DNA of 62,291 nt, the filler included, from Squatina squatina (taxonomy: Eukaryota): assembly GCA_031763465.1 (NCBI GenBank). It is 4 parts of 4 records of this genome, joined end to end, with 100 filler letters (N's around TTAATTAATTAA, not from the genome) between each part and the next. Parts side by side here need not be neighbours in the genome. Positions count along the whole stretch, not along the records: positions 34,768 to 49,962 come from JARFOE010000168.1; 3 more parts are not named here. The stretch is one strand, 5' to 3'. Position numbers and translations under genes: made by a program. The first letter of the stretch is position 1. Each line of letters opens with the position of its first letter. Positions 18,044 to 50,062 of this stretch are shown here, piece by piece. The notes beneath the pieces were generated by a model. It saw only the letters and a program-made list of their open reading frames with translations, had not been told where the DNA came from and did not search any database.

Positions 18044-18143
18044 NNNNNNNNNNNNNNNNNNNNNNNNNNNNNNNNNNNNNNNNNNNNTTAATTAATTAAN
18101 NNNNNNNNNNNNNNNNNNNNNNNNNNNNNNNNNNNNNNNNNNN
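18044..18143. other. Artificial scaffold linker 44N-TTAATTAATTAA-44N
   Basis: Exactly 100 bp; palindromic 12-mer (18088-18099) with stop codons in all six frames. Confidence 0.95.
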
Positions 18144-32640: not shown

Positions 32641-32856
32641 CAGCACTTGTAGAACCAGAGCCCAGTGATTTAGCTGAATGCCTTCAGCAGTGGAAGGAAG
32701 AAAACTGAAGAGAGTTTATTTAAGACGGGGAATCCATCAGTTTGGTGCAGTCTTCTNNNNNNNNNNNNNNNNNNNNNNNNNNNNNNNNNNNNNNNNNNNN
32801 NNNNNNNNNNNNNNNNNNNNNNNNNNNNNNNNNNNNNNNNNNNNNNNNNNNNNNNN

Positions 32857-33045
32857 CCACAGCCCTCTGGGATAAAGAATTCCAAAGATTCACCACTCTC
32901 TGAGTGAAGAAATTTCTCCTCAACTCAGTCCTAAATGGCCTAACCCTTATTCTGAGACTGTGACCCCTGGTTCTAGACTCCCCAGGGGAAACATCCTCCC
33001 TGTATCTACCCTGTCGATATCTGTAAGAATTTTATATGTTTCGAA
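32857..33045 (-). mobile_element. CR1 LINE 3' region
   Basis: Minus strand reads MRRNFFTQRVVNLWNSLSQRAV. Confidence 0.85.
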
Positions 33046-34667: not shown

Positions 34668-34767
34668 NNNNNNNNNNNNNNNNNNNNNNNNNNNNNNNNN
34701 NNNNNNNNNNNTTAATTAATTAANNNNNNNNNNNNNNNNNNNNNNNNNNNNNNNNNNNNNNNNNNNN
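34668..34767. other. Artificial scaffold linker 44N-TTAATTAATTAA-44N
   Basis: Same layout as 18044-18143; 12-mer at 34712-34723. Confidence 0.95.
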
Positions 34768-35326: not shown

Positions 35327-36062
35327 GAGAGGGGGAGTAACTGACTGAGAAAAGGAGCTCGCATTAGTTTCTCGAAAGAAACAGGAAGAAAAGGTTATTT
35401 TTTGTCCCAGGATCCTAGTCTCCCCTCCAGGTTAGCAAAGAAATCCTAGGTTTGAAATGTCGTTAGTGAAATGAGCAGCATTGGATATTCTTTAAATGGA
35501 TGCTCTTTACTACACATGAATATCAACAATTAATAATTATGCATTAATAATGAATGTGAGGATGGAACCACGGCAGAGTAACGCACCAAAAATGCCCCGA
35601 TTGGATGAACAAACTGTTTATCGAGACACACTGTAAAGAATGAGCACATGGGTGAGGTATCAGAGTCTCCTGGAGAGGGGGAGAGAAAATAAAAATGCAC
35701 AAAGTGGGAGCAAGGGCAATATCAGTTTTATTTGATGTTCTCGTTGATAATCACTGTGTATCTTCCATAACTCGTGTTTCCTTGTGTTCTGACGGTTTTA
35801 GACAGTAATTGCAAAATCTGTTCTGGTTTGTTTAGGAGCATCTGCAGCCAATGTCTGGTGAGCCAGTGAAGACCAGCACAAGTCTACAGACTCTGGCCCT
35901 GTTTCTGCCTCATCACAGTTGCTGAATGTGTGACCACGCTTACCCAAGCACCAGTCCCTTCAACGGTTGGAGAATTTCTTTAAATTTTAAACTCTGAAAT
36001 GTGTTGCTCTCAACTCGCAAGAGGACTGTTTTCTGGCTGAATTTGCAGCTGCAAGGTAACGG

Positions 36063-36518
36063 ATGCCCTCCCTCTGGACTGAGATTATGGCCGTTTTGCC
36101 GCCCAGGTTAGAGGACTTAAGCTTGGAGTTCCACAGAATGGTGGAGGAGAGCCTCGTTTCCTTATTACGGCAGGCAGTGGAGTTGCTGTATGAAGGCCAG
36201 GACATAGCCCAGTGTCTGCAGCTCGGTCAGACCATCATTGACTTCTCCTGGGAGAAGCTGAACATTGGAACTTGGAGGGAGGTAGACAAGGAGTGGAGGA
36301 GAGTCTACTCACATGGCTGCCTCATCAAGGCTGTGTGCCTGTGCAAGGAGGAGACAGCGGTTAGAGAGGCGATAAAAGCTTGTGACATGGGATTGTTGAT
36401 GGGGGCAGCAATATTGGACAACATTCTCATCAAACTGATTAAAGTCCTTCAGAGACATGATACCACTGGGAAGAGGCCTTTGGAAGATACTGCATCCCAT
36501 CAGGAATCGAGCAGAAAG
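36063..36518 (+). CDS. KDM8: KDM8/JMJD5 first coding exon (152 codons, N-terminal domain)
   Basis: [49 protein letters not shown] matches vertebrate KDM8 (human [41 protein letters not shown]). Phase-0 donor AAG|GTACAG at 36519; candidate acceptor TTTGCAG ending at 36048. Confidence 0.95.
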
Positions 36519-36764
36519 GTACAGTTTCCATGATTGATGAACCAGCTCTCCGACTGCTTCATCGCTACTTCTACAAATGGAACGGATAAACAAAGCCAAA
36601 GTCCCCCAGGGATAGGGCCTGGAATGGGAGACACCGCTGGGCGAGGAGCAGACTGATGGGAGATATGCCAGCTGTGTATAAGGAACGGAAAGGGAATGAG
36701 CTCGGAGTAGTTTCAAACTAGTTCCTCATGACACGAATCCAAGACACAACTGCCCAGAATTCAG

Positions 36765-36828
36765 GGCTGAGATGAGGAGGAATTTCTTCACTCAGAGGGT
36801 TGTGAATCTTTGGAATTCTCTATCCCAG
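36765..36828 (+). mobile_element. CR1 3' fragment
   Basis: MRRNFFTQRVVNLWNSLSQ. Confidence 0.8.
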
Positions 36829-38423: not shown

Positions 38424-38667
38424 ACAACAGGGCGGGAGCAGCAGAGTCCACAACAGGGCGGGAGCAGCAGAGTCCACAACAGGGCGGGAGCAGCAGAGTC
38501 AACAACAGGTCGGGAGCAGCAGAGCCCACAACAGGTCGGGAGCAGCAGAGCCCACAACAGGGCGGGAGCAGCAGAGACCACAACAGGGCGGGAGCAGCAG
38601 AGACCACAACAGGGCGGGAGCAGCAGAGCCCATAACAGGGCGGGAGCAGCAGAGACCACAACAGGGC
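38424..38667. repeat. 26-bp GC-rich minisatellite, at least 9 copies
   Basis: Unit ACAACAGGGCGGGAGCAGCAGAG(T/C/A)CC, head to tail with no spacers; starts at a gap. Confidence 0.95.
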
Positions 38668-39084
38668 AGGAGAAGAAGAGATCCGAGAAAGAGCAGATAT
38701 GGGGCCCACCCCTGGACCAAATGGAGCTCTGGTTCTTTCCAAGATGGCGGCATCCACGCTGGTTTAATGAAGCGGGAGCACAGGGAATGGGAGGCCGGGT
38801 GAGCTGAAGGTCGGGGCCCAAGGAGCGGGGGAGGGGTAGATGTGAGGCCGAGGGAACCAGGAGCCGAGGACTGTGAAGCAGCGGAGTAAAAAACGAGAGG
38901 CCCGAGGAGACGGCGACCGGCAGCTGAGGAGCAGGGGAGTGAGGCAAATTAGGCTCAGGAAGCCAGAGCCCAGGGGCGTGAGGAGCCAGAGGCCGGGAGA
39001 TCTGGGATCCAGCAGCCCAGGGAGCCAGAGACTGGAGTAGCGGTGGAGGGGGAAAAGGAGTCTATGTGTATGTCTGTGTATTAG

Positions 39085-41235
39085 TCCGTGCAACAGAGCC
39101 TGGTCTCCAATCGTCTAGGTCCTCCTTGCCATTGGATCAAGACTTTGCTTGGCTGAAACCGTGTGGTAGCCGGTGTGCAACGGAATGTCAGGACCTTATG
39201 GACAACCCCCACAGCGACAGACCCGAACGGCGCACCGCCATCATCACTCGGGAACTCAGGCGATATGACATCAAAATCGCTGCCCTGAGTGAGACATGAT
39301 GAGCAGAAGAAGGCCTGCTCAAGGAGCTAGGCGGCAGCTACACCTTGTTCTGGAAAGGCAAACGAGAGAAAGAACGCCGTCTCCACAGGGTCGGCTTCGC
39401 CATAAAAAATCATCTAGTTTTGTGCCTCAGCGACTCCCCCTGCAGGATAAACGAGAGCCTCATGAAGCTCCGACTCTCCATAACCCAGATCCAGCACACC
39501 ATGGTCATCAGTGCATACGCCACAACTCTAAAAGCAACAGAGGAGACCAAAGAGGACTCCTACTCCACCCTCGAGCAATCCCTATCCCATGTCCCAAAGA
39601 GAGACAAGCTGATCCTCCTGGGCGATTTCAATGCCAGAGTTGGGAAGGATGTAAACCTCTGGACGGGCACGATCAGCAGGGAAGGAGTGGGAAAGCAAAC
39701 TCCAATGGAGTCCTCCTCCTAACAAAGTGTCTGGAACATGGCCTTGTTATAACCAACAGCCTATTCCGCTGGAAAGACAAGGACAAGACCTCATGGCAAC
39801 AACCTCGCCCCAGGCACTGACACCTAGTGGACTGCGTCATCGTTCGAGCAAGGGACCGCAAGGATGTCCGCATCACACGCGCCATGACAGGGGCCGACGA
39901 CTGCTGGACTGACCAGTTAATCGGCTCTATCATTTCCGTCAAACCAGCCCAAAAATGACAGCGGAAGCAGAAAAAATGCCGCAGGAAGATCAGCATTGAA
40001 GAGCTCAAAGATCCTGCGAAGAAGCCCTACTCAGCCAACGCCTCACAACAAAGCTGGCCACGCTCAATCAATCAGAACCACAGAGTGTCCAGACTGTGTG
40101 GTCCACCCTCAAGTCCAGAATCACCAGCACCTGCGAGGAGAATCTTGCTCTCTCTACCAGGAAACATCAAGACTGGTTTGATGAGAAAGACCAGGAAATT
40201 CATAAGCTGCTAAACCGCAAACGTAAGGCATTCCTGAACTGGAGTCAGCACCAAAGTTCGAGGGAAAGTAAACAGGTCCACAGACAAACGAAGGCCGAGG
40301 TCCAACATAAAACTCAGGACCGAAAGAATAGATGGTAGGTTGAAAGAGCGCAGGAGATCTAACAAATCGCCGACAACAATGACATGAATGGATTCTTCAG
40401 CGCAGTCAAGATCATCTGTGGCCCAAACACCCAAGGACCTACCCCGCTGAGAGCTAAAAATTAAGACGTGCTCATTAAGGACAGAGGGTCAGTCAGCGCC
40501 TGCTGGAAGGAGCACTTCAAAGAATTCCTCAACCAAGATTCGGTCCTCGACGCCCAAGCCTGGATTCCATCCCATAACATCCTACCCGCCACCACCTCAG
40601 CACAACCCCTGCCCTACACGAGGTTGTAAAGGCCATCAGCTAAATAACAACAAGGCCTCTGGCATAGATGGAATCCCTGCCGAAATACTAAAATATGGTG
40701 GTGAGCTACTCATGGCACGAATCCATGGCCACATCTCCCTCATTTGGCAGGAGATCTCAGAGATCTCATAATCATGGACATTCTCAAGAAAGGAGACAAG
40801 TCTGATTGTGGAAACTACAGAGGGGTCTCCCTGCTGTCCGTCACAGGGAAGGTCATCGGGATGGCCTCCTCAATTGTCTCCTGCCAGTGGCTGAAGAGCT
40901 GCTCCCCGAGTCACAATGTGGTTTCTGTCCATCTAGGGGTACAACGGACATGATTTTCAGCACACGCCAAATCCAAGAAAAGTGCAGGGAGCAGCATTGA
41001 CCTCTGTACATGGCCTTCTTTGACCTTACGAAGATGGCCAAGCGCAGGCAGTGGAAGGAATGCACAGAAACACGAGCTTCCCATCCACTCACCCCATCAA
41101 ATACCACCTGCCCCACCTGCGGTCATGTTTGCGAATCCCGCATCGGACTTTTCAGCCACCTCAGAACCCACAACCCTGGAATGGAAGCAATTCATCTCGA
41201 ACTCAAGGGACTGCCTAAGAAGAGAAGAAGAGTTA
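39085..41235 (+). mobile_element. RTE-clade (BovB/RTE-1-like) non-LTR retrotransposon, pseudogenised and internally deleted
   Basis: APE motifs RPERRTA..IAALSET, FWKG..VGFAIK, ISAYA, LILLGDFNARVG; RT start NYRGVSLLS, LPESQCGF, MAFFDLTK; jumps at about 41030 to the C-terminal C2H2 finger CPTCGHVC..LFSHLRTH; GAA-type tail; many stops and frameshifts. GC-rich 38680-39085 may be its 5' UTR. Confidence 0.9.
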
Positions 41236-42548: not shown

Positions 42549-42754
42549 CTAAAACCAAAAAAAAGATCAGTTAACATACATTGGATGTGAAGCACTTTGG
42601 GAGATCATGAGAAGAGGACAGGTGAGATATCAATGCAAGTTCCTTCATCACAAAGCATGTAAACCAGGCTATCGCTTTAGTGGAGTACAGAGGGAGCGCT
42701 GCATTGTCAGAGGGGCAGAACTGAGTGAGTGCTGCTCTGTCGGACGGCAGTGTC

Positions 42755-42904
42755 CCAGGCCAAAGCATCTCCAGCAGCTTCATCGATGACCTTCCCTCCA
42801 TCATAAGGTCAGAAGTGGGTATGTTCTCTGATGACTGCACAGTGTTCAGTGCCATTGGCAACTCCTCAGATAATGAAGCAGTCCATGCCCGCATGCAGCA
42901 AGAC
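42755..42904 (+). mobile_element. CR1/L2-type RT fragment
   Basis: FIDDLPSIIRSEVGMFSDDCTVF (YADD-box region). Confidence 0.75.
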
Positions 42905-44541
42905 NNNNNNNNNNNNNNNNNNNNNNNNNNNNNNNNNNNNNNNNNNNNNNNNNNNNNNNNNNNNNNNNNNNNNNNNNNNNNNNNNNNNNNNNNNNNNNNN
43001 NNNNAATTCAGAAACCTTCCACCCCTTTAATGTTGACTTCTCCTTCTGGATGTCCCATGCAGCATTGGCTGTATTTCTCCCATTGGCTATGGAGGGCTCC
43101 CTCTTTGTGACCGGGATCCCATCAGGATCCCATCCTGAATAACTAATGAACCCTGATCCAGGGAAATGGATCGGGGTCATGGTAAGGATTAGTGGGGTAT
43201 TCCACGCCAACTCCCCTCTCGGGTGTGAGCCCACACTAGAGGAAAATCCTACTCTTCATCANNNNNNNNNNACTGGGTAAAAGGTACCTGAGTACTCTCC
43301 CAACTAAAGGAAGCCCAGTGAGGCTCGATGGGGAAAATATACAACCGTTCAATACCTCCTTCTTTCAGGTTCACACAATAAATGTGAAGATATATTACTT
43401 GAGTTATCCCATTATTTCATGTGCACATCCCAGCCTTTAGTGTGATCTTGTTGGTTGAGTCTTCTTATTGGTGTGGGTGATAATTTTCTCACAGTTCTCA
43501 GCTAGCTGATTGCTCTCTGTACTGATAATATTTGCAGTGCTGATGCGAGAATCCTATTGGGTGGATGTTGCCTGATGATTTATAACTACATTCAGCAATT
43601 TATTACCATTTCAATTCTGATCTTTTTTCCCATCACCCATGACGGCCCTCAACCACTTCTTTAAACCAAGGCGATGGGGTAGCTTGTCAGTGCCATTCCA
43701 AGTGACTCCTGTGGTGCCAAAGCAGAATGCATACCATGGTGTACCATCCAGTAGCACATTGTCTTGTTACTGAGATCTGATAGGGCATTCCTGCAGAGTG
43801 GACACTCTGGGTGCAGCTACTGATGCAGGCGTTCACCCCTATTATGTTAATACCCCAACGGATATAGTACAGGTTCATGCCAGGGTTGGAAGTTTCATCC
43901 CACTGCACTTATAGCTGTGCCATTTCACCAGGGGAATTTCTATCTTTCTGTCCTTAAGTGTGGAGAAGCACTTTTGGTTAAAAGCATTCCACGTCATCTC
44001 AAATTTCACATATAATGATAAAGTAGAAAATAGTGTCACCAAATAAAACAGCCTCCCCAAATTTGACCTCTGATAAACAAACTCTTGAGATTCAAATTTA
44101 GCGGAGACACAAAGCGGGCAGCAACTGATGGGTCCCCATTATATGCCCTGCCTGATTTTCCTCTTCACTGACTGCAAGGAAAACCAGGAAGGAGCAGTCC
44201 ATCCGTTCCCACCTGTTTTACTCCCCGACTTGTGTTGAGTTTTACCTCCTTTATTTCCAAATTGTTGTTGGGTCAACATCTCTCAATAGCATCTGCTGAG
44301 GTGGCCAACAGAACCTCAGGATAATATTTCATGTCGGATATTAATGGGAAGCCACCAGCAAAAGTTGACAATCTACATCCCCAACCCTCCTAATGCTGGA
44401 TTCCCTTCAAGTCCCCTTTGGAATCTCCCTTCCTACTTCTCATTGCCCCAGTTGGCCAGAATAAAATATAAAACTATTGAAACATGTCTACGAATTGTCA
44501 TCATTAGCTGCTTTTAACCAAGGCTCTCTTTCCCTTTTCAG

Positions 44542-45354
44542 AGTTGGGTTAATGCTCAGCACCCAGATGCATTGTATAAAGTCAATGAGAAAAGTGCGAT
44601 GGTCCTGGAGAAGGGGGACGTTGTGCAGGTATACGACGGACCTGTTGCTCTTGAGAAAGCATTGATGACTGGATTGAAACCATGGGACAAACAGTCTGAG
44701 ATTCATTCCTCGTGGCAGGCTCTGTGTGGCCCAAGTTCCTGCCTTTCATCACACTCTCGGGGCCAATTTGGTAACAACACCCAGCAGTGGAAGGATAAAT
44801 CCTATGGGCGGGTGTCTATCGACACGGTGACAGTAACCGACGAGGCTGCATCTTGTTGCTCCCAATGCAGTTGCAAATGCAAACCAACCAGACCACCCTA
44901 CTTGACCCAATGTAATAGTCATTCTGACAGAGACAATCCCAATGGGCAGGATTATCCCAGCAGAAAGCAACTGTTCAGTCATTTGCACCCAGTTACATCA
45001 GGAACCCCTCAGCATTGCCACAGCACCACACCACTGAACACCATGCTCTCCCTGTTACAATCCTCTGATGGCCAAGAGGGGACAAGTGGGACTGTGTTAG
45101 ACCTTCAGTGTCTCAACGTGGCTGACTGGGGACCAGAAAATGAATCTTTTCCTTTGAATGATGGTGAAGATGCCTCCTGGGATGACAGACATGTGGGTGA
45201 AAGTGGTTCTTGGAGTGATGGAAGTCTCGATACCATCTCCTCGTGCAGTAGGCTGGAAGCAGACCCTGGTTACCCAAAGATATCACTAGATTTGGATACT
45301 GTTGACAGTGGATTCACTGAGACTGACACCGATTCTATGACAGGCACTGACTGA
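44542..45354 (+). CDS. IL21R: Terminal (cytoplasmic) exon of an interleukin-21 receptor-like class I cytokine receptor, 270 aa plus stop
   Basis: Acceptor CTCTCTTTCCCTTTTCAG|AGT TGG GTT (SWV; human last exon starts KWV, phase 0); box2-like VVQVY; KSYGRVSIDTVTVTD (human RPYGLVSIDTVTVLD); LDLDTVDSGF (human LDMDTFDSGF); linked to KDM8 as at human 16p12.1. Confidence 0.85.
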   Translation, partial: SWVNAQHPDALYKVNEKSAMVLEKGDVVQVYDGPVALEKALMTGLKPWDKQSEIHSSWQALCGPSSCLSSHSRGQFGNNTQQWKDKSYGRVSIDTVTVTDEAASCCSQCSCKCKPTRPPYLTQCNSHSDRDNPNGQDYPSRKQLFSHLHPVTSGTPQHCHSTTPLNTMLSLLQSSDGQEGTSGTVLDLQCLNVADWGPENESFPLNDGEDASWDDRHVGESGSWSDGSLDTISSCSRLEADPGYPKISLDLDTVDSGFTETDTDSMTGTD

Positions 45355-48203
45355 GACTGACAGAAACTGTCTGACACCGACACACTGACAGAAACTGTCA
45401 GACACCGACACACTGACAGACACTGACTGACACTGACGCACTGACAGAAACTGACTGACATTGATGCACTGACAGAAACTGACTGACAATGACGCACTGA
45501 CAGAAACTGATTGACACCGACACACTGACAGAAACTAACTGACACCAAAAGACTGACAGACATTGACTGACACTGACGCACTGACAGAAACTGACTGACA
45601 CCAACACACTGAGAGAAACTGTCAGACACCGACACACTGACAGACACTGACTGACACCGACGTACTGACAGAAACTGACTGACACAGACACACTGACAGA
45701 AACTGACTGACACCGACACACTGACTGACGCTTCCTGACACTGACAGCGACTCACAGACCCTGACTGACACTGACTGACATGGCAGACACTGACTGACAC
45801 CCACACACTGACAGACAGTGACTGACACCGACACACTGACAGACACTGAGTCACACTGACACACTGACAGACACTGACTGATACCGACACACTGGCAGAC
45901 ACTGACACACTGACAGAAACCGACTGACACCCACACACTGACTGACACTGACACACTGACAGAATCAGACTGACACTGACAGACAGTGACTGACACCGAC
46001 ACACTGACAGACACTGAGTAACACCGATACACTGACAGACACTGACTGTCACCGATACACTCACAGAAACTGACTGACACCGACACACTGACTGAATCTG
46101 ACTGACACCGACACACTGACAGACGCTGACTGACACTGACACACTGACAGACACGCACTGACACCGACACACTGACAGACACTGAGTAACACTGACACAC
46201 TGACAGAATCTGACTGACACCGACACACTGGCAGTAACCGACTGACACCTACACACTGACTGACACCAACACACTGAGAGAAACTGTCAGACACCGACAC
46301 ACTGACAGACACTGACTGACACCGATGTACTGACAGAAACTGACTGACACAGACACACTGACAGAAACTGACTGACACCGACACACTGACTGACACTGCC
46401 TGACACTGACAGCCACTCACAGACCCTGACTGACACTGACTGACATGGCAGACACTGACTGACACCGACACACTGGCAGAAACTGACTGACACCGACACA
46501 CTGACTGAATCTGACTGAAACCGACACACTGACAGACGCTGACTGACACTGACACACTGACAGACACGCACTGATACCGACACACTGACTGACACTGACA
46601 CACTGACAGAGTCTGACTGACACCGACACACTGGCAGTAACCGACTGACACCCACACACTGACTGACACCGACACACTGACAGAAACTGACTGATACCAA
46701 CACATTGACTGACACCGGCACACTGACAGAAACTGACTGACACTGACTGACTCCGACACACTGACAGAAACTGTCTGACACCGATACACTGACAGACACT
46801 GACTGACACTGACACACTGACAGAAACTGAAAGACGCTGACGCACTGACAGACACTGACTGACACTGACACACTGACAGACACTGACTGACACTGACGCA
46901 CTGACAGAAACTGACTGACACGGACACACTGACAGAAACTGACTGACACTGACACACTGACAGAAACTGACTGACACGGACACACTGACAGAGACTGACT
47001 GACATCGACACACTGACAGAAACTGACTGACACCGACACACTGATAGAAACTGACTGACACCGACACACTGACTGAAACTGACTGACACCCACACACTGA
47101 CAGACACTGCCTGACACTGACAGCCACTCACAAGCACTGACTGACATGGCAGACACTTACTGACACCAAAACACTGACAGACACTGACTGACACCGACAC
47201 ACTGACAGACACTGAATGTCACCGATATACTCACAGAAACTGACTGACACCGACACACTGACAGAAACTGACTGACACCGACACACTGGCAGAAACTGAC
47301 TGACACCAACACACTGATAGAAGCTGACTGACACCGCCACACTGACAGACACTGACTGACACTGTCACACTGACAGACACTGACTGATACCGACACACTG
47401 TCAGACACTGACACACTGACGGAATCTGACTGACACCGACACACTGGCAGAAACCGACTGACACCCACACACTGACTGACACCGACACACTGACAGAAAT
47501 TGACTGATACCAACACATTGACTGACACCGACACACTGACAGAATCAGACTGACACTGACGCACTGACAGAAACTGACTGACACAGACACAGTGACAGAA
47601 ACTGACCGACACTAACACACTGACAGGCACTGACTGACACCGGCCCACTGACAGAAACTGACTGACACGGACAAACTGACAGAATCTGACTGACACCGAC
47701 ACACTGACAGAAAATGACTGAGCCCAACACACTGGCAGAAAGTGACTGACATCGACACACTGACAGACAATGACTGACACCGACACACTGACAGACACTG
47801 ACCAACACCATCACACTGGCAGAAACTGACTGACACCGACACACTGACTGAATCTGACTGGCACCGACACACTGACAGAAACTGACTGACACCGGCACAC
47901 TGACAGAAACTGACTGACACTGATTGACACCGACACACTGACAGAAACTGTCTGACACCGATACACTGACAGACACTGACTGACACCGACACACTGACAG
48001 AAACTGACAGACGCTGACACACTGACAGACACTGACTGACACTGACACACTGACAGAAACTGACTGACACTGATGCACTGACAGAAACTGACTGACACTG
48101 ACACACTGAGAGACACTGACTGACACTGACGCACTGACAGAAACTGATTGACACCGACACACTGACAGAAACTAACTGACACCAAAAGACTGACAGACAT
48201 TGA
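45345..48203. repeat. 28-bp (ACTG-based) minisatellite, about 100 degenerate units with higher-order structure
   Basis: Unit CACTGACAGAAACTGACTGACACCGACA; rare variants recur at offsets of 665 bp (45601/46266, 45781/46446) and 2637 bp (45490-45566 = 48127-48203). Confidence 0.95.
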
Positions 48204-49274
48204 NNNNNNNNNNNNNNNNNNNNNNNNNNNNNNNNNNNNNNNNNNNNNNNNNNNNNNNNNNNNNNNNNNNNNNNNNNNNNNNNNNNNNNNNNNNNNNNNN
48301 NNNAGGGCTACCAGGTTACCTGCCCTAAAGGATATTCGTGAACTAGTTGGGTTTTTGCTCGTCAATACCCGTTCACAAAGATGGCAGCCATTGCTGAGTA
48401 CTCACACTCTTGCCCAAGTCAGAAAGTTATGGGTTCAATCCCACTCGAGGTCATGAGCACACAATCCAGGCTGTTACTGCAGTGAAGAGAGTGCTGCAAT
48501 GCCAGAGGTGCAATAATGGTGAATGGCACTCGGAGAGTTTACAAACAGGAGAGAAGTGAAGCCTTTAATGTTGAGCGCAGGAGTCTTGCCCTCAACAGTG
48601 AAAGATGCAAATGAGCACTTGAGGTAGCATTTCCGAAAGGATTTCTGTTCTGCAGTGTGGCTGACAGCTCTGTTTTTCTACGCAGGTTGTGTTGGCCCGC
48701 GAGCAAACAACTGGTAAAGAATATGCGAGTAAGTAACAACTAATCTTCTAGTTTGGGTGGTAGTTTTGGGCTCTCCTCCATCATGGCTGACCCTTCACCT
48801 CTGGTCATCCTGGGCAAACTGCTTTGCCGTTTACCTTGGCTGTCTAGGTTTTTAAAACTCGCACTGAGACGTTATGGGATCAGTTGGCATCGAGGCACAG
48901 GATGTTGGGACGTGGCTTTGTCCACATTGCTGAGTTCTGGCTCTTGGCCACAGCAGAGGCCTGACTCTTTCCTTCCTCTGTGCTGCACCCTCCAACCTGA
49001 GAGAATGAGGGAAGGGCAGTCCTGCGCCACGCGCCCAAACTCTGACAAAAGGTTCAGAGCATTTACTGGAGCCAGCGCGCAAGTGTTGATGAATGGCCCT
49101 GGGTCACCATAGCAATGAGACAAATAGTGGGAGCATCAACCTCAAACTTATTATTTATTTCATTTTGCTGATGGGTACAGCTCGAGCCAAGGATTGCCCT
49201 GTCAGGAAAAGGTGCGAATGTTTCTGGTTCCCTGCTGTTTGTGCTGCCAAATTGAATGGAAAGTTGCCTCCCCT

Positions 49275-49612
49275 TGTGCTACTGAGCCAAACAGACCTCC
49301 TGGAGTTAGCAGGTCTCGGCTGGGCCAGGAGCCAGCCCGTTATCGAGGGCCTGGGGCTTTCCTGGTCTAGGGAGTGGAAATTCAGTTGTGTTCCCATTCC
49401 TTATCTCTGTCCCGCCCCTGTGAGTAATGTGTGTGGGATGTCGGGAGAAGATCAGATTGGGCTCAGCTTTGAGCTCCCCACGGTCGAGTAGGCAGCCAGC
49501 ACTCACTTTCTAGAATATCTCAAGGCAGTATTGGTGAGCTGGCACAAGGTTGGTGTTGCTGATGGAGCAGTGTACCGGTGAGAGTCGGCGCCTTTAGCAG
49601 AAAATTGGGGGA
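49275..49612 (+). mobile_element. Second, older SINE-like family
   Basis: GATGTCGGGAGAAGATCAGATTGGGCTCAGCT..GAGTCGGCGCCTT..AGAAAATTGG; parallels 61410-61795. Confidence 0.5.
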
Positions 49613-49651
49613 ATTTGTTTCTAAATATTGTAACNNNNNNNNNNCTTTCAG

Positions 49652-49789
49652 TTAAAATTCTGGAGAAGCGTCATATCATTAAGGAGAACAAGGTACCGTA
49701 CGTGACCCGAGAGAGGGATATCAGGTCTCGCCTGGATCACCCCTTCTTTGTAAAACTCTACTTCACTTTTCAGGATGATGAGAAGCTGT
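49652..49789 (+). CDS. PDPK1: PDPK1 (PDK1) kinase N-lobe exon, 138 bp, phase 1-1
   Basis: (I)KILEKRHIIKENKVPYVTRERDIRSRLDHPFFVKLYFTFQDDEKL(Y) is nearly identical to human PDK1 residues ~110-155; acceptor CTTTCAG ends at 49651. Confidence 0.95.
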
Positions 49790-49797
49790 GTATCCTT
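49790..49797 (+). promoter_or_regulatory. U12-type (minor spliceosome) 5' splice site GTATCCTT
   Basis: Exact RTATCCTT consensus at the point where PDK1 similarity ends (KL-T|GTATCCTTG). Confidence 0.85.
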
Positions 49798-49962
49798 GAT
49801 TTTTAATGAGTGCTCCAGTCTACTACCTTTCACTGCTTAAAAGAAAATGCAAGGGAGCCCTGCACTTGTTGCTTGTCCTGAAGACGATTGGCAGCTGTCA
49901 GCAGCACAGCCTTGCATACAAATCGAGGGTTTTTTCATCTTTACAGCCTGTGCATGTTACAG

Positions 49963-50062
49963 NNNNNNNNNNNNNNNNNNNNNNNNNNNNNNNNNNNNNN
50001 NNNNNNTTAATTAATTAANNNNNNNNNNNNNNNNNNNNNNNNNNNNNNNNNNNNNNNNNNNN
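49963..50062. other. Artificial scaffold linker 44N-TTAATTAATTAA-44N
   Basis: Third identical construct; 12-mer at 50007-50018. Confidence 0.95.

Follow-up and report, generated by a model that had tools for sequence, protein, structure and literature searches.

In the draft assembly of the shark Squatina squatina (GCA_031763465.1), an exon resembling the last coding exon of the interleukin-21 receptor gene (IL21R) runs through the conserved motif DSGF, adds a few codons, and stops at the edge of a minisatellite, which raises the question of whether this lineage has lost the distal end of the receptor or whether exon and repeat came together in some other way. The stretch that we analyzed, called the window here, is 62,291 nucleotides long, filler included, and joins four parts of four records of this genome. 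The distal end of the cytoplasmic domain is where signaling is anchored in mammals: excerpts of two papers describe Y510 of mammalian IL-21R as the main STAT1 docking tyrosine (PMC13694099) and YXXQ as the STAT3 association motif of the receptor (PMC8638458).

The last coding exon of IL21R and its missing tail

The open frame spans 44518-45354 on the plus strand and ends in ...LDLDTVDSGF TETDTDSMTGTD followed by a TGA stop codon at 45352-45354 (Table 1). An RNA-type contig from a relative (X5) is spliced at the start of this exon, and its loose end at 44541 encodes LFVDHGGNFT of the preceding exon. The sequence-only reading that drew our attention to the locus had assigned the exon to IL21R and had described coding sequence up to LDTVDSGF, then a few codons and a stop, then the array without an N gap, and all of this was borne out. 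The exon matches 14 proteins, 13 of them named IL-21 receptor or IL-21 receptor-like and one without a name, at identities of 84% for Heptranchias (P0001, XP_067859163.1), 79% for Pristiophorus (P0006), and down to 37% for Callorhinchus. The alignment places the cytoplasmic motifs SIDTV and DT[VIF]DSGF in the exon, and the named bony-vertebrate matches of the profile are all IL21R except one labelled IL-4 receptor alpha, which itself carries IL21R motifs. A tree of 21 exon sequences, built without Callorhinchus, isoforms, and fragments, nests the exon among sharks as sister to Pristiophorus (support 100/97) with an end branch of 0.05, a placement that points to a squalomorph shark. Protein matches, motifs, and tree support the assignment of the exon to a putative IL21R orthologue. 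Searches of the window by tblastn with 14 tails, and then with all 203 proteins, returned no other IL21R exon and nothing significant outside this one; the exons for the extracellular WSXWS motif, the transmembrane helix, and Box1 thus lie outside the window.

We see no sign of decay in the exon. A decaying pseudogene was considered and rejected: the frame is open, the branch is short, and only one private change falls in 93 columns that are otherwise invariant, compared with 1 to 8 in each of 11 other elasmobranchs. Differences to organism A fall mostly at third codon positions, with 24 third, 10 first, and 4 second positions among the first 38 exonic differences listed; these come from a list of 40, from which one intronic difference and one beside an indel were dropped, and 68 more exist.

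Table 1. Features around the IL21R exon and the adjoining array, in window coordinates
Feature	Position	Strand	Basis
Pyrimidine tract and AG splice acceptor of the last IL21R exon	44519..44541	+	Sequence; X5 contig
Native part of the last coding IL21R exon (cytoplasmic domain)	44542..45341	+	Homology; relatives' contigs
PPYLTQ, internal YxxQ common to sharks and rays, candidate second STAT3 site	44893..44910	+	Alignment, motif counts
DTVDSGF, conserved IL21R motif	45295..45315	+	Invariant in alignment
Old codons from E-T-D-T-D-S-M-T, where the join was likely seeded	45321..45341	+	17/21 match to the array's commonest 21-mer
Junction stretch of array-like letters, G-T-D and stop TGA	45342..45354	+	Relatives diverge after 45341
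Compound minisatellite, 10- and 18-bp subunits, 28-bp period	45356..48203	.	TRF; self-comparison
End of the contig, repeating 45490-45566 exactly (77 bp) after a different base; inferred loop of a k=77 graph	48127..48203	+	Self-comparison
Scaffold gap, 100 N	48204..48303	.	Sequence
Next piece, not IL21R: repeat fragment, intron, two kinase exons	48304..49962	+	Depth, X5 splice

The tail past DSGF measures 61-69 residues in sharks, so about 57-60 residues are missing in the window. The earlier expectation of about 40 residues after DSGF, taken from mammals, was right in that a tail is missing and does not fit the length of the shark tail. The assembled exon ends after GTD and is without a distal YxxQ, and tblastn found no match to the IL21R tail elsewhere in the window, including the piece behind the gap; the reported loss of the distal motif thus stands for the assembled sequence, in the exon and in the window as a whole. 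The loss has no counterpart in the proteins that we compared. A distal YxxQ is found in each of the 58 proteins among P0001-P0061 that carry the DSGF motif, with tails of 50-89 aa. In a separate set of 142 unnamed representatives, 29 carry the motif, and 28 of these have a distal YxxQ, the lone exception having YVKH within a full tail; the shortest tail in this set is 39. Tail loss was therefore seen in none of these 58 and 29 proteins. No homologue of near-equal length appeared among 2240 candidates, and the exact shortened protein is absent from the protein collection searched. A GLPGYLP-stop reading behind the gap was weighed as a damaged YLPQ and rejected; it is unlike shark tails and sits in a high-copy repeat (depth, 46,000) that opens the post-gap piece, and for that reason we ascribe GYLP-stop to chance.

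An internal YxxQ motif in sharks and rays

The exon retains a single YxxQ, well upstream of DSGF. The sequence-only reading had placed PPYLTQ at 44899-44910 and called it the only such motif; it is indeed the only one in the exon, and those coordinates hold YLTQ alone, with PP at 44893-44898. It had also proposed that the tail of this lineage might be short by nature and its STAT3 site relocated, YLTQ taking the place of the distal motif. An alignment of chondrichthyan proteins, suggested in the same reading as a check, keeps the post-DSGF tail throughout and refutes relocation: PY[LMT]TQ is present in 34 of 34 elasmobranch proteins that cover the region (isoforms and close kin included), and all 34 keep a distal YVKQ. 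A relocated, lineage-specific site would need to occur only where the distal one is lost and was rejected on this ground; since both sites occur together in every one of these proteins, the internal one is better described as an old second site than as a substitute.

PY[LMT]TQ is found in none of 21 named bony-vertebrate proteins and none of the 29 representatives. All 21 aligned rows have the P, Y, T, and Q of the motif, and the +1 position can be L, M, or T; of the 100 columns around the motif, only 17 are invariant. Four fixed positions with a variable +1 fit a docking motif, putatively one for STAT3, and we predict that the internal YLTQ serves as a second STAT3 docking site that is used beside the distal one. 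We found no paper describing a second YxxQ motif in shark or ray IL-21R; supplementary alignments in shark immunology papers could show it. Transcripts of the receptor itself occur in centrocyte-like B cells and Tfh-like cells of the nurse shark, according to an excerpt of PMC10529500. Whatever the fate of the tail in S. squatina, the lasting result of the motif comparison is that IL-21R of sharks and rays has two conserved YxxQ motifs, against one in the bony vertebrates that we examined, and this predicts a different STAT3/STAT1 dosage in the IL-21 pathway.

The array, the junction, and the assembly around them

TRF counts 101.5 copies in the array with 76% matches, and self-comparison shows that it also holds 665-bp and other higher-order duplications. 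No N gap separates it from the exon, and at its other end it reaches a 100-N gap. Its unit had no match in metagenome contigs, and an atlas search with its translation gave a best value of 0.88, which is a lead only. Neither AATAAA nor ATTAAA occurs in 45300-48203, and no GT[AG]AG donor occurs there either.

Contigs assembled from relatives' reads show where native sequence ends. Eleven runs were listed, all with a share of 0.05, and contigs from 5 of the 11 were compared; none of the 11 is from the window's own species (best share, 0.05), and no RNA run of that species is listed. Beyond 45341 the contigs of X3 and X5 (one sample) and of X11 no longer follow the window and instead carry codons for A-V-D-S-G-Y-K-S-N-T and a normal tail, and the alignment of the X9 contig likewise ends at 45341. 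The X11 contig differs from 45289-45341 at 1 of 53 letters. Because relatives diverge after 45341, we treat 45342-45354 as the switch zone. Immediately upstream, Heptranchias, Heterodontus, and carpet sharks all have TETDTDSMT unchanged, and it is thus ancestral coding sequence. The earlier suggestion that the last codons look repeat-like through growth of the array out of the coding tail is accordingly wrong for the most part, and the array agrees: the seed's TTCTA occurs in 0 of 64 units and a CACAC state in 47 of 64, at most two of the five letters are common, and the first units of the array show no gradient toward the seed state.

The native codons and the array nevertheless resemble one another at the break. 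The array's most frequent 21-mer, present in 17 exact copies, agrees at 17 of 21 positions with the 21 native bases that end at the break, on the same strand and in the same phase. When the 110,106 21-mers of the window that lie outside the array are ranked by how many array positions they match at ≥16/21, 45321-45341 comes first; this test was designed after the site was seen, and the first rank holds at length 21 only, the ranks at lengths 18, 24, and 27 being 39, 42, and 46 of about 110,000 (top 0.04%). The position of the break is not random: it sits at the most array-like 21-mer. A 17-mer had been reported at both 45338-45354 and 47621-47637, and it is indeed exact at both places. Only its first four letters (at most six) are native, and the remainder is array consensus plus one rare variant, GC after TGACAG, which is found at 1 of 71 array places. 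Loss of 30 bases, bringing M-T up against the T-G-T-D that relatives have further on, is a less favored route that would need two events; the loose end extends for 30 letters.

The surrounding assembly is fragmented: the window is broken up by 42 N runs, and its 33 pieces have a median length of 1480 bp. Three gaps consist of TTAATTAATTAA flanked by 44 N on each side (all-frame-stop linkers), and a spacer with this core serves to merge contigs, as described in an excerpt of PMC3360785. The 77-bp copy at the contig end stands out within the array: repeats of at least 77 end at 2 of 2651 array positions, which are the 77-bp pair itself, and the next longest is 71. Such a terminal copy, a mark of short-read graph assembly, is what a k=77 graph would leave when a path closes a loop, and k values of 21, 33, 55, and 77, the last being the largest default, are given for SPAdes with 150-bp reads in an excerpt of PMC12222747. 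The same text states that SPAdes assemblies of tandem repeats left out units or created chimeric ones, and part of PMC12135590 states that graph contigs can, where data are missing, report strings absent from the genome. The 77-bp loop shows how the contig was made and not that the junction is false.

Behind the gap, 48304-48356 is a high-copy repeat fragment with a depth of 46,000 versus about 44-53 for single-copy parts. Two kinase exons follow at 48685-48726 and 49651-49787, and X5 shows the spliced joint 48726>49651; the Pkinase match is weak. We take these two exons to be part of PDPK1. A 10-N gap at 49635 conceals about 46 bases that are found in a relative. A KDM8 exon (Pfam E value, 1e-12), the IL21R exon, and the two kinase exons all lie within 14 kb, with the other IL21R exons missing; we found no paper on synteny. 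Of 80 piece ends, no more than 14 abut a repeat that can be seen within the window, against a background of 7.7%, which reveals little about coverage.

Origin of the junction and comparison with known systems

We favor, with a probability of about 0.6, a false join driven by homeology, produced by a chimeric library molecule or by an overlap join of contig ends, with the true tail fallen into a hole of the assembly. A molecule or contig end would have switched template at the look-alike codons, as a PCR chimera or an overlap join, and the true tail would have been lost in one of the assembly's many holes. We prefer this reading because relatives keep their tails, the exon is undecayed, and the break lies at the most array-like 21-mer, and because the scaffold is fragmented, the 10-N gap hides bases, and the contig ends in a 77-bp loop. 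A template switch between old codons and an independent repeat is the simplest reading, and in the living animal the gene probably retains the normal YVKQ tail. A chimeric contig was among the options raised by the sequence-only reading, and it survives as the most likely one, not by way of the 17-mer as a shared k-mer but through the 17/21 in-phase likeness. Several points weigh against it. Native and array sequence agree exactly over no more than 4-6 letters at the break, and over 12 further upstream, which is too short for a plain k-mer collision at k≥21, so that the explanation has to invoke a chimeric molecule or an overlap join. Self-search found no fold-back (near-identical inverted) repeats in the window, and the spare YxxQ of elasmobranchs would make a real loss of the distal site more tolerable. 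A break at look-alike sequence is also equally expected from microhomology-mediated repair or ectopic recombination in vivo.

This last point suits a junction that is real DNA and is not fixed: such repair or recombination would have fused the array to one allele, or to a partial duplicate comprising intron and exon, and an intact copy would sit elsewhere. A recent event of this kind would leave no decay, no N gap lies at the junction, and so short an exact overlap makes a simple k-mer collision less likely. With an intact, near-identical copy present, however, the graph should branch at 45341, a point at which graph assemblers tend to stop, yet the contig runs through, and we consider this explanation unlikely. 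We give still less credit to a truncation that is both real and fixed in the lineage, with a receptor that terminates at GTD, no longer carries the distal YVKQ, and would signal to STAT3 through the internal YLTQ. The exon is conserved right up to the break, the internal motif is invariant amid variable columns, Callorhinchus P0014 shows that the tail tolerates a large in-frame repeat, and, with the stop in the last coding exon, a transcript would likely escape decay. Against this stand the absence of shortened tails from the 58 and 29 proteins with the DSGF motif, the retained tail of Pristiophorus, the sister in the tree, and the lack of AATAAA or ATTAAA in 45300-48203, and the function of YLTQ is only predicted. 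The broader claim, that a squalomorph shark lost its distal STAT-docking tail by recombination between codons and a minisatellite and was rescued by a second YxxQ, amounting to a natural Y510 deletion, seems to us improbable to the same degree.

The two remaining explanations treat the array itself as the agent. Repeated duplication of 28 bases from 45321 might have given birth to the array on the spot, shifting the frame and displacing the tail: 45321-45348 agrees with the array consensus at 23 of 28 positions in register (counted by eye), and an invariant Asp codon lies 28 bases past the start of the seed. Units of such an array should recall their origin, and these neither keep seed states nor grade toward them, on which ground a minisatellite grown from a local coding seed was rejected; TTCTA is missing from all 64 units where 47 have CACAC, with no gradient at the edge. 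A relative's next seven letters match the unit at only two, and 45353-45395 is matched by short contigs of a relative whose depths, 183 and 67 against 37 for single copy, hint weakly at similar repeats elsewhere. Local birth is very improbable on this evidence. Lowest in our estimation, and close to negligible, is a real insertion that splicing would remove in the form of a new GC-AG intron (CAG|GC, 45343/45344), which would restore A-V-D and a tail behind the gap. The array unit does end in CAG, the GC that follows TGACAG at 1 of 71 places is present precisely at the junction, and the relatives' Ala codon would split as G|CT. The consensus for splice donors at +4 to +6 is AGT. The donor here departs from it by reading CTG, no GT[AG]AG donor lies in 45300-48203, and the tail is absent from the window.

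Should the truncation be real and fixed, it would offer a natural test of whether an internal YxxQ suffices. If the join is false, as we favor, no biological meaning should be read into tail losses beside satellites in this stitched draft, and breakage at an in-phase look-alike can serve as a warning sign.

Set beside known receptors, the exon is closest to the IL21R-like proteins of Heptranchias (P0001), Pristiophorus (P0006), and Heterodontus (P0002), which are 79-84% identical over it, share its splice point, and have SIDTV, PPYLTQ, DTVDSGF, and TETDTDSMT (or close variants) as in the window. Those proteins run about 57-60 residues further to YVKQW, where the window has GTD, a stop, and the array. 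IL-21R of bony vertebrates, mammals included, matches the exon in DT[IFV]DSGF and in the overall profile; it has one distal YxxQ (Y510) and, in the proteins compared, no PYxTQ, while the window as assembled is without the distal motif. Callorhinchus milii (P0014) lacks PYxTQ at that place and has other internal YxxQ. Its protein carries an in-frame 12-residue tandem repeat just before DTVDSGF, in the same exon that adjoins the array in the window, and differs in that the frame and a distal YMKQ are kept and the repeat unit is unrelated to the array. On the side of assembly, the locus resembles SPAdes-type de Bruijn misassembly at tandem repeats in its terminal 77-bp loop, its 10-N and 100-N gaps, and a repeat at the contig end. 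It differs from a SPAdes k-mer collision in that the overlap between exon and array is too short, and the assembler in the present case is itself deduced.

Stitching and ordering of the scaffold

The scaffold is stitched together with three artificial linkers, the core of which, TTAATTAATTAA, carries stops in all frames, so that adjacency across the gaps is no evidence of linkage. The KDM8 exon lies 8 kb ahead of the IL21R exon in the window and, given that the two genes are near neighbours in human, this suggests that the pieces were ordered against a reference. Several of the broken endonuclease and reverse-transcriptase fragments, which we take to be LINE-like, are located at piece ends, and the 26-bp minisatellite contains an internal 51-bp repeat at the contig edge. 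The two kinase exons downstream of IL21R presumably belong to PDPK1.

Features of the window and their coordinates
Feature	Position	Strand	Details
Artificial linkers	18044-18143; 34668-34767; 49963-50062		each 44 N + TTAATTAATTAA + 44 N
LINE-like fragments	32720-33031; 36700-36828; 38982-41100; 42725-42904		broken; from translations
KDM8 first coding exon	36060-36530	+	Pfam ARM_KDM8_N, E 9.7e-13
26-bp minisatellite	38424-38681		9.9 copies, 94% matches; begins another piece
Second array-like stretch, IL21R exon	44817-44842	+	codons for IDTVTVTD; up to 18/21 match to array
Kinase exons	48685-48726; 49651-49803	+	spliced together in RNA-type contig of a relative

YxxQ motifs of IL21R

Shark and ray IL21R homologues (P0001-P0039) share two conserved YxxQ motifs, an internal PY[LMT]TQ (44893-44910 in the window) and a distal YVKQ. 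Skate proteins carry up to four (YTTQ, YFNQ, YVKQ, and YPPQ), and the bony-vertebrate IL21R examined mostly have a single one. One IL21R-like representative, P0070, has a full tail with YVKH where others have YVKQ; either the motif has been lost naturally in this protein or the sequence is in error.

Tandem repeats at the IL21R locus

Because the IDTVTVTD codons are also array-like, the T/D-rich coding sequence of the IL21R exon resembles the adjoining 28-bp minisatellite array twice. In the Callorhinchus milii protein (P0014), a 12-residue unit of the NLSDPGYPRHPG type is tandemly repeated ∼18 times in frame, every copy containing a tyrosine; this tract spans approximately residues 485 to 710 and directly precedes DTVDSGF. 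The annotated N terminus of Pristiophorus IL21R (P0006, residues 1 to 385) resembles a translated tandem repeat and is probably a misannotation. Tandem repeats are recurrent at the IL21R locus of cartilaginous fishes.
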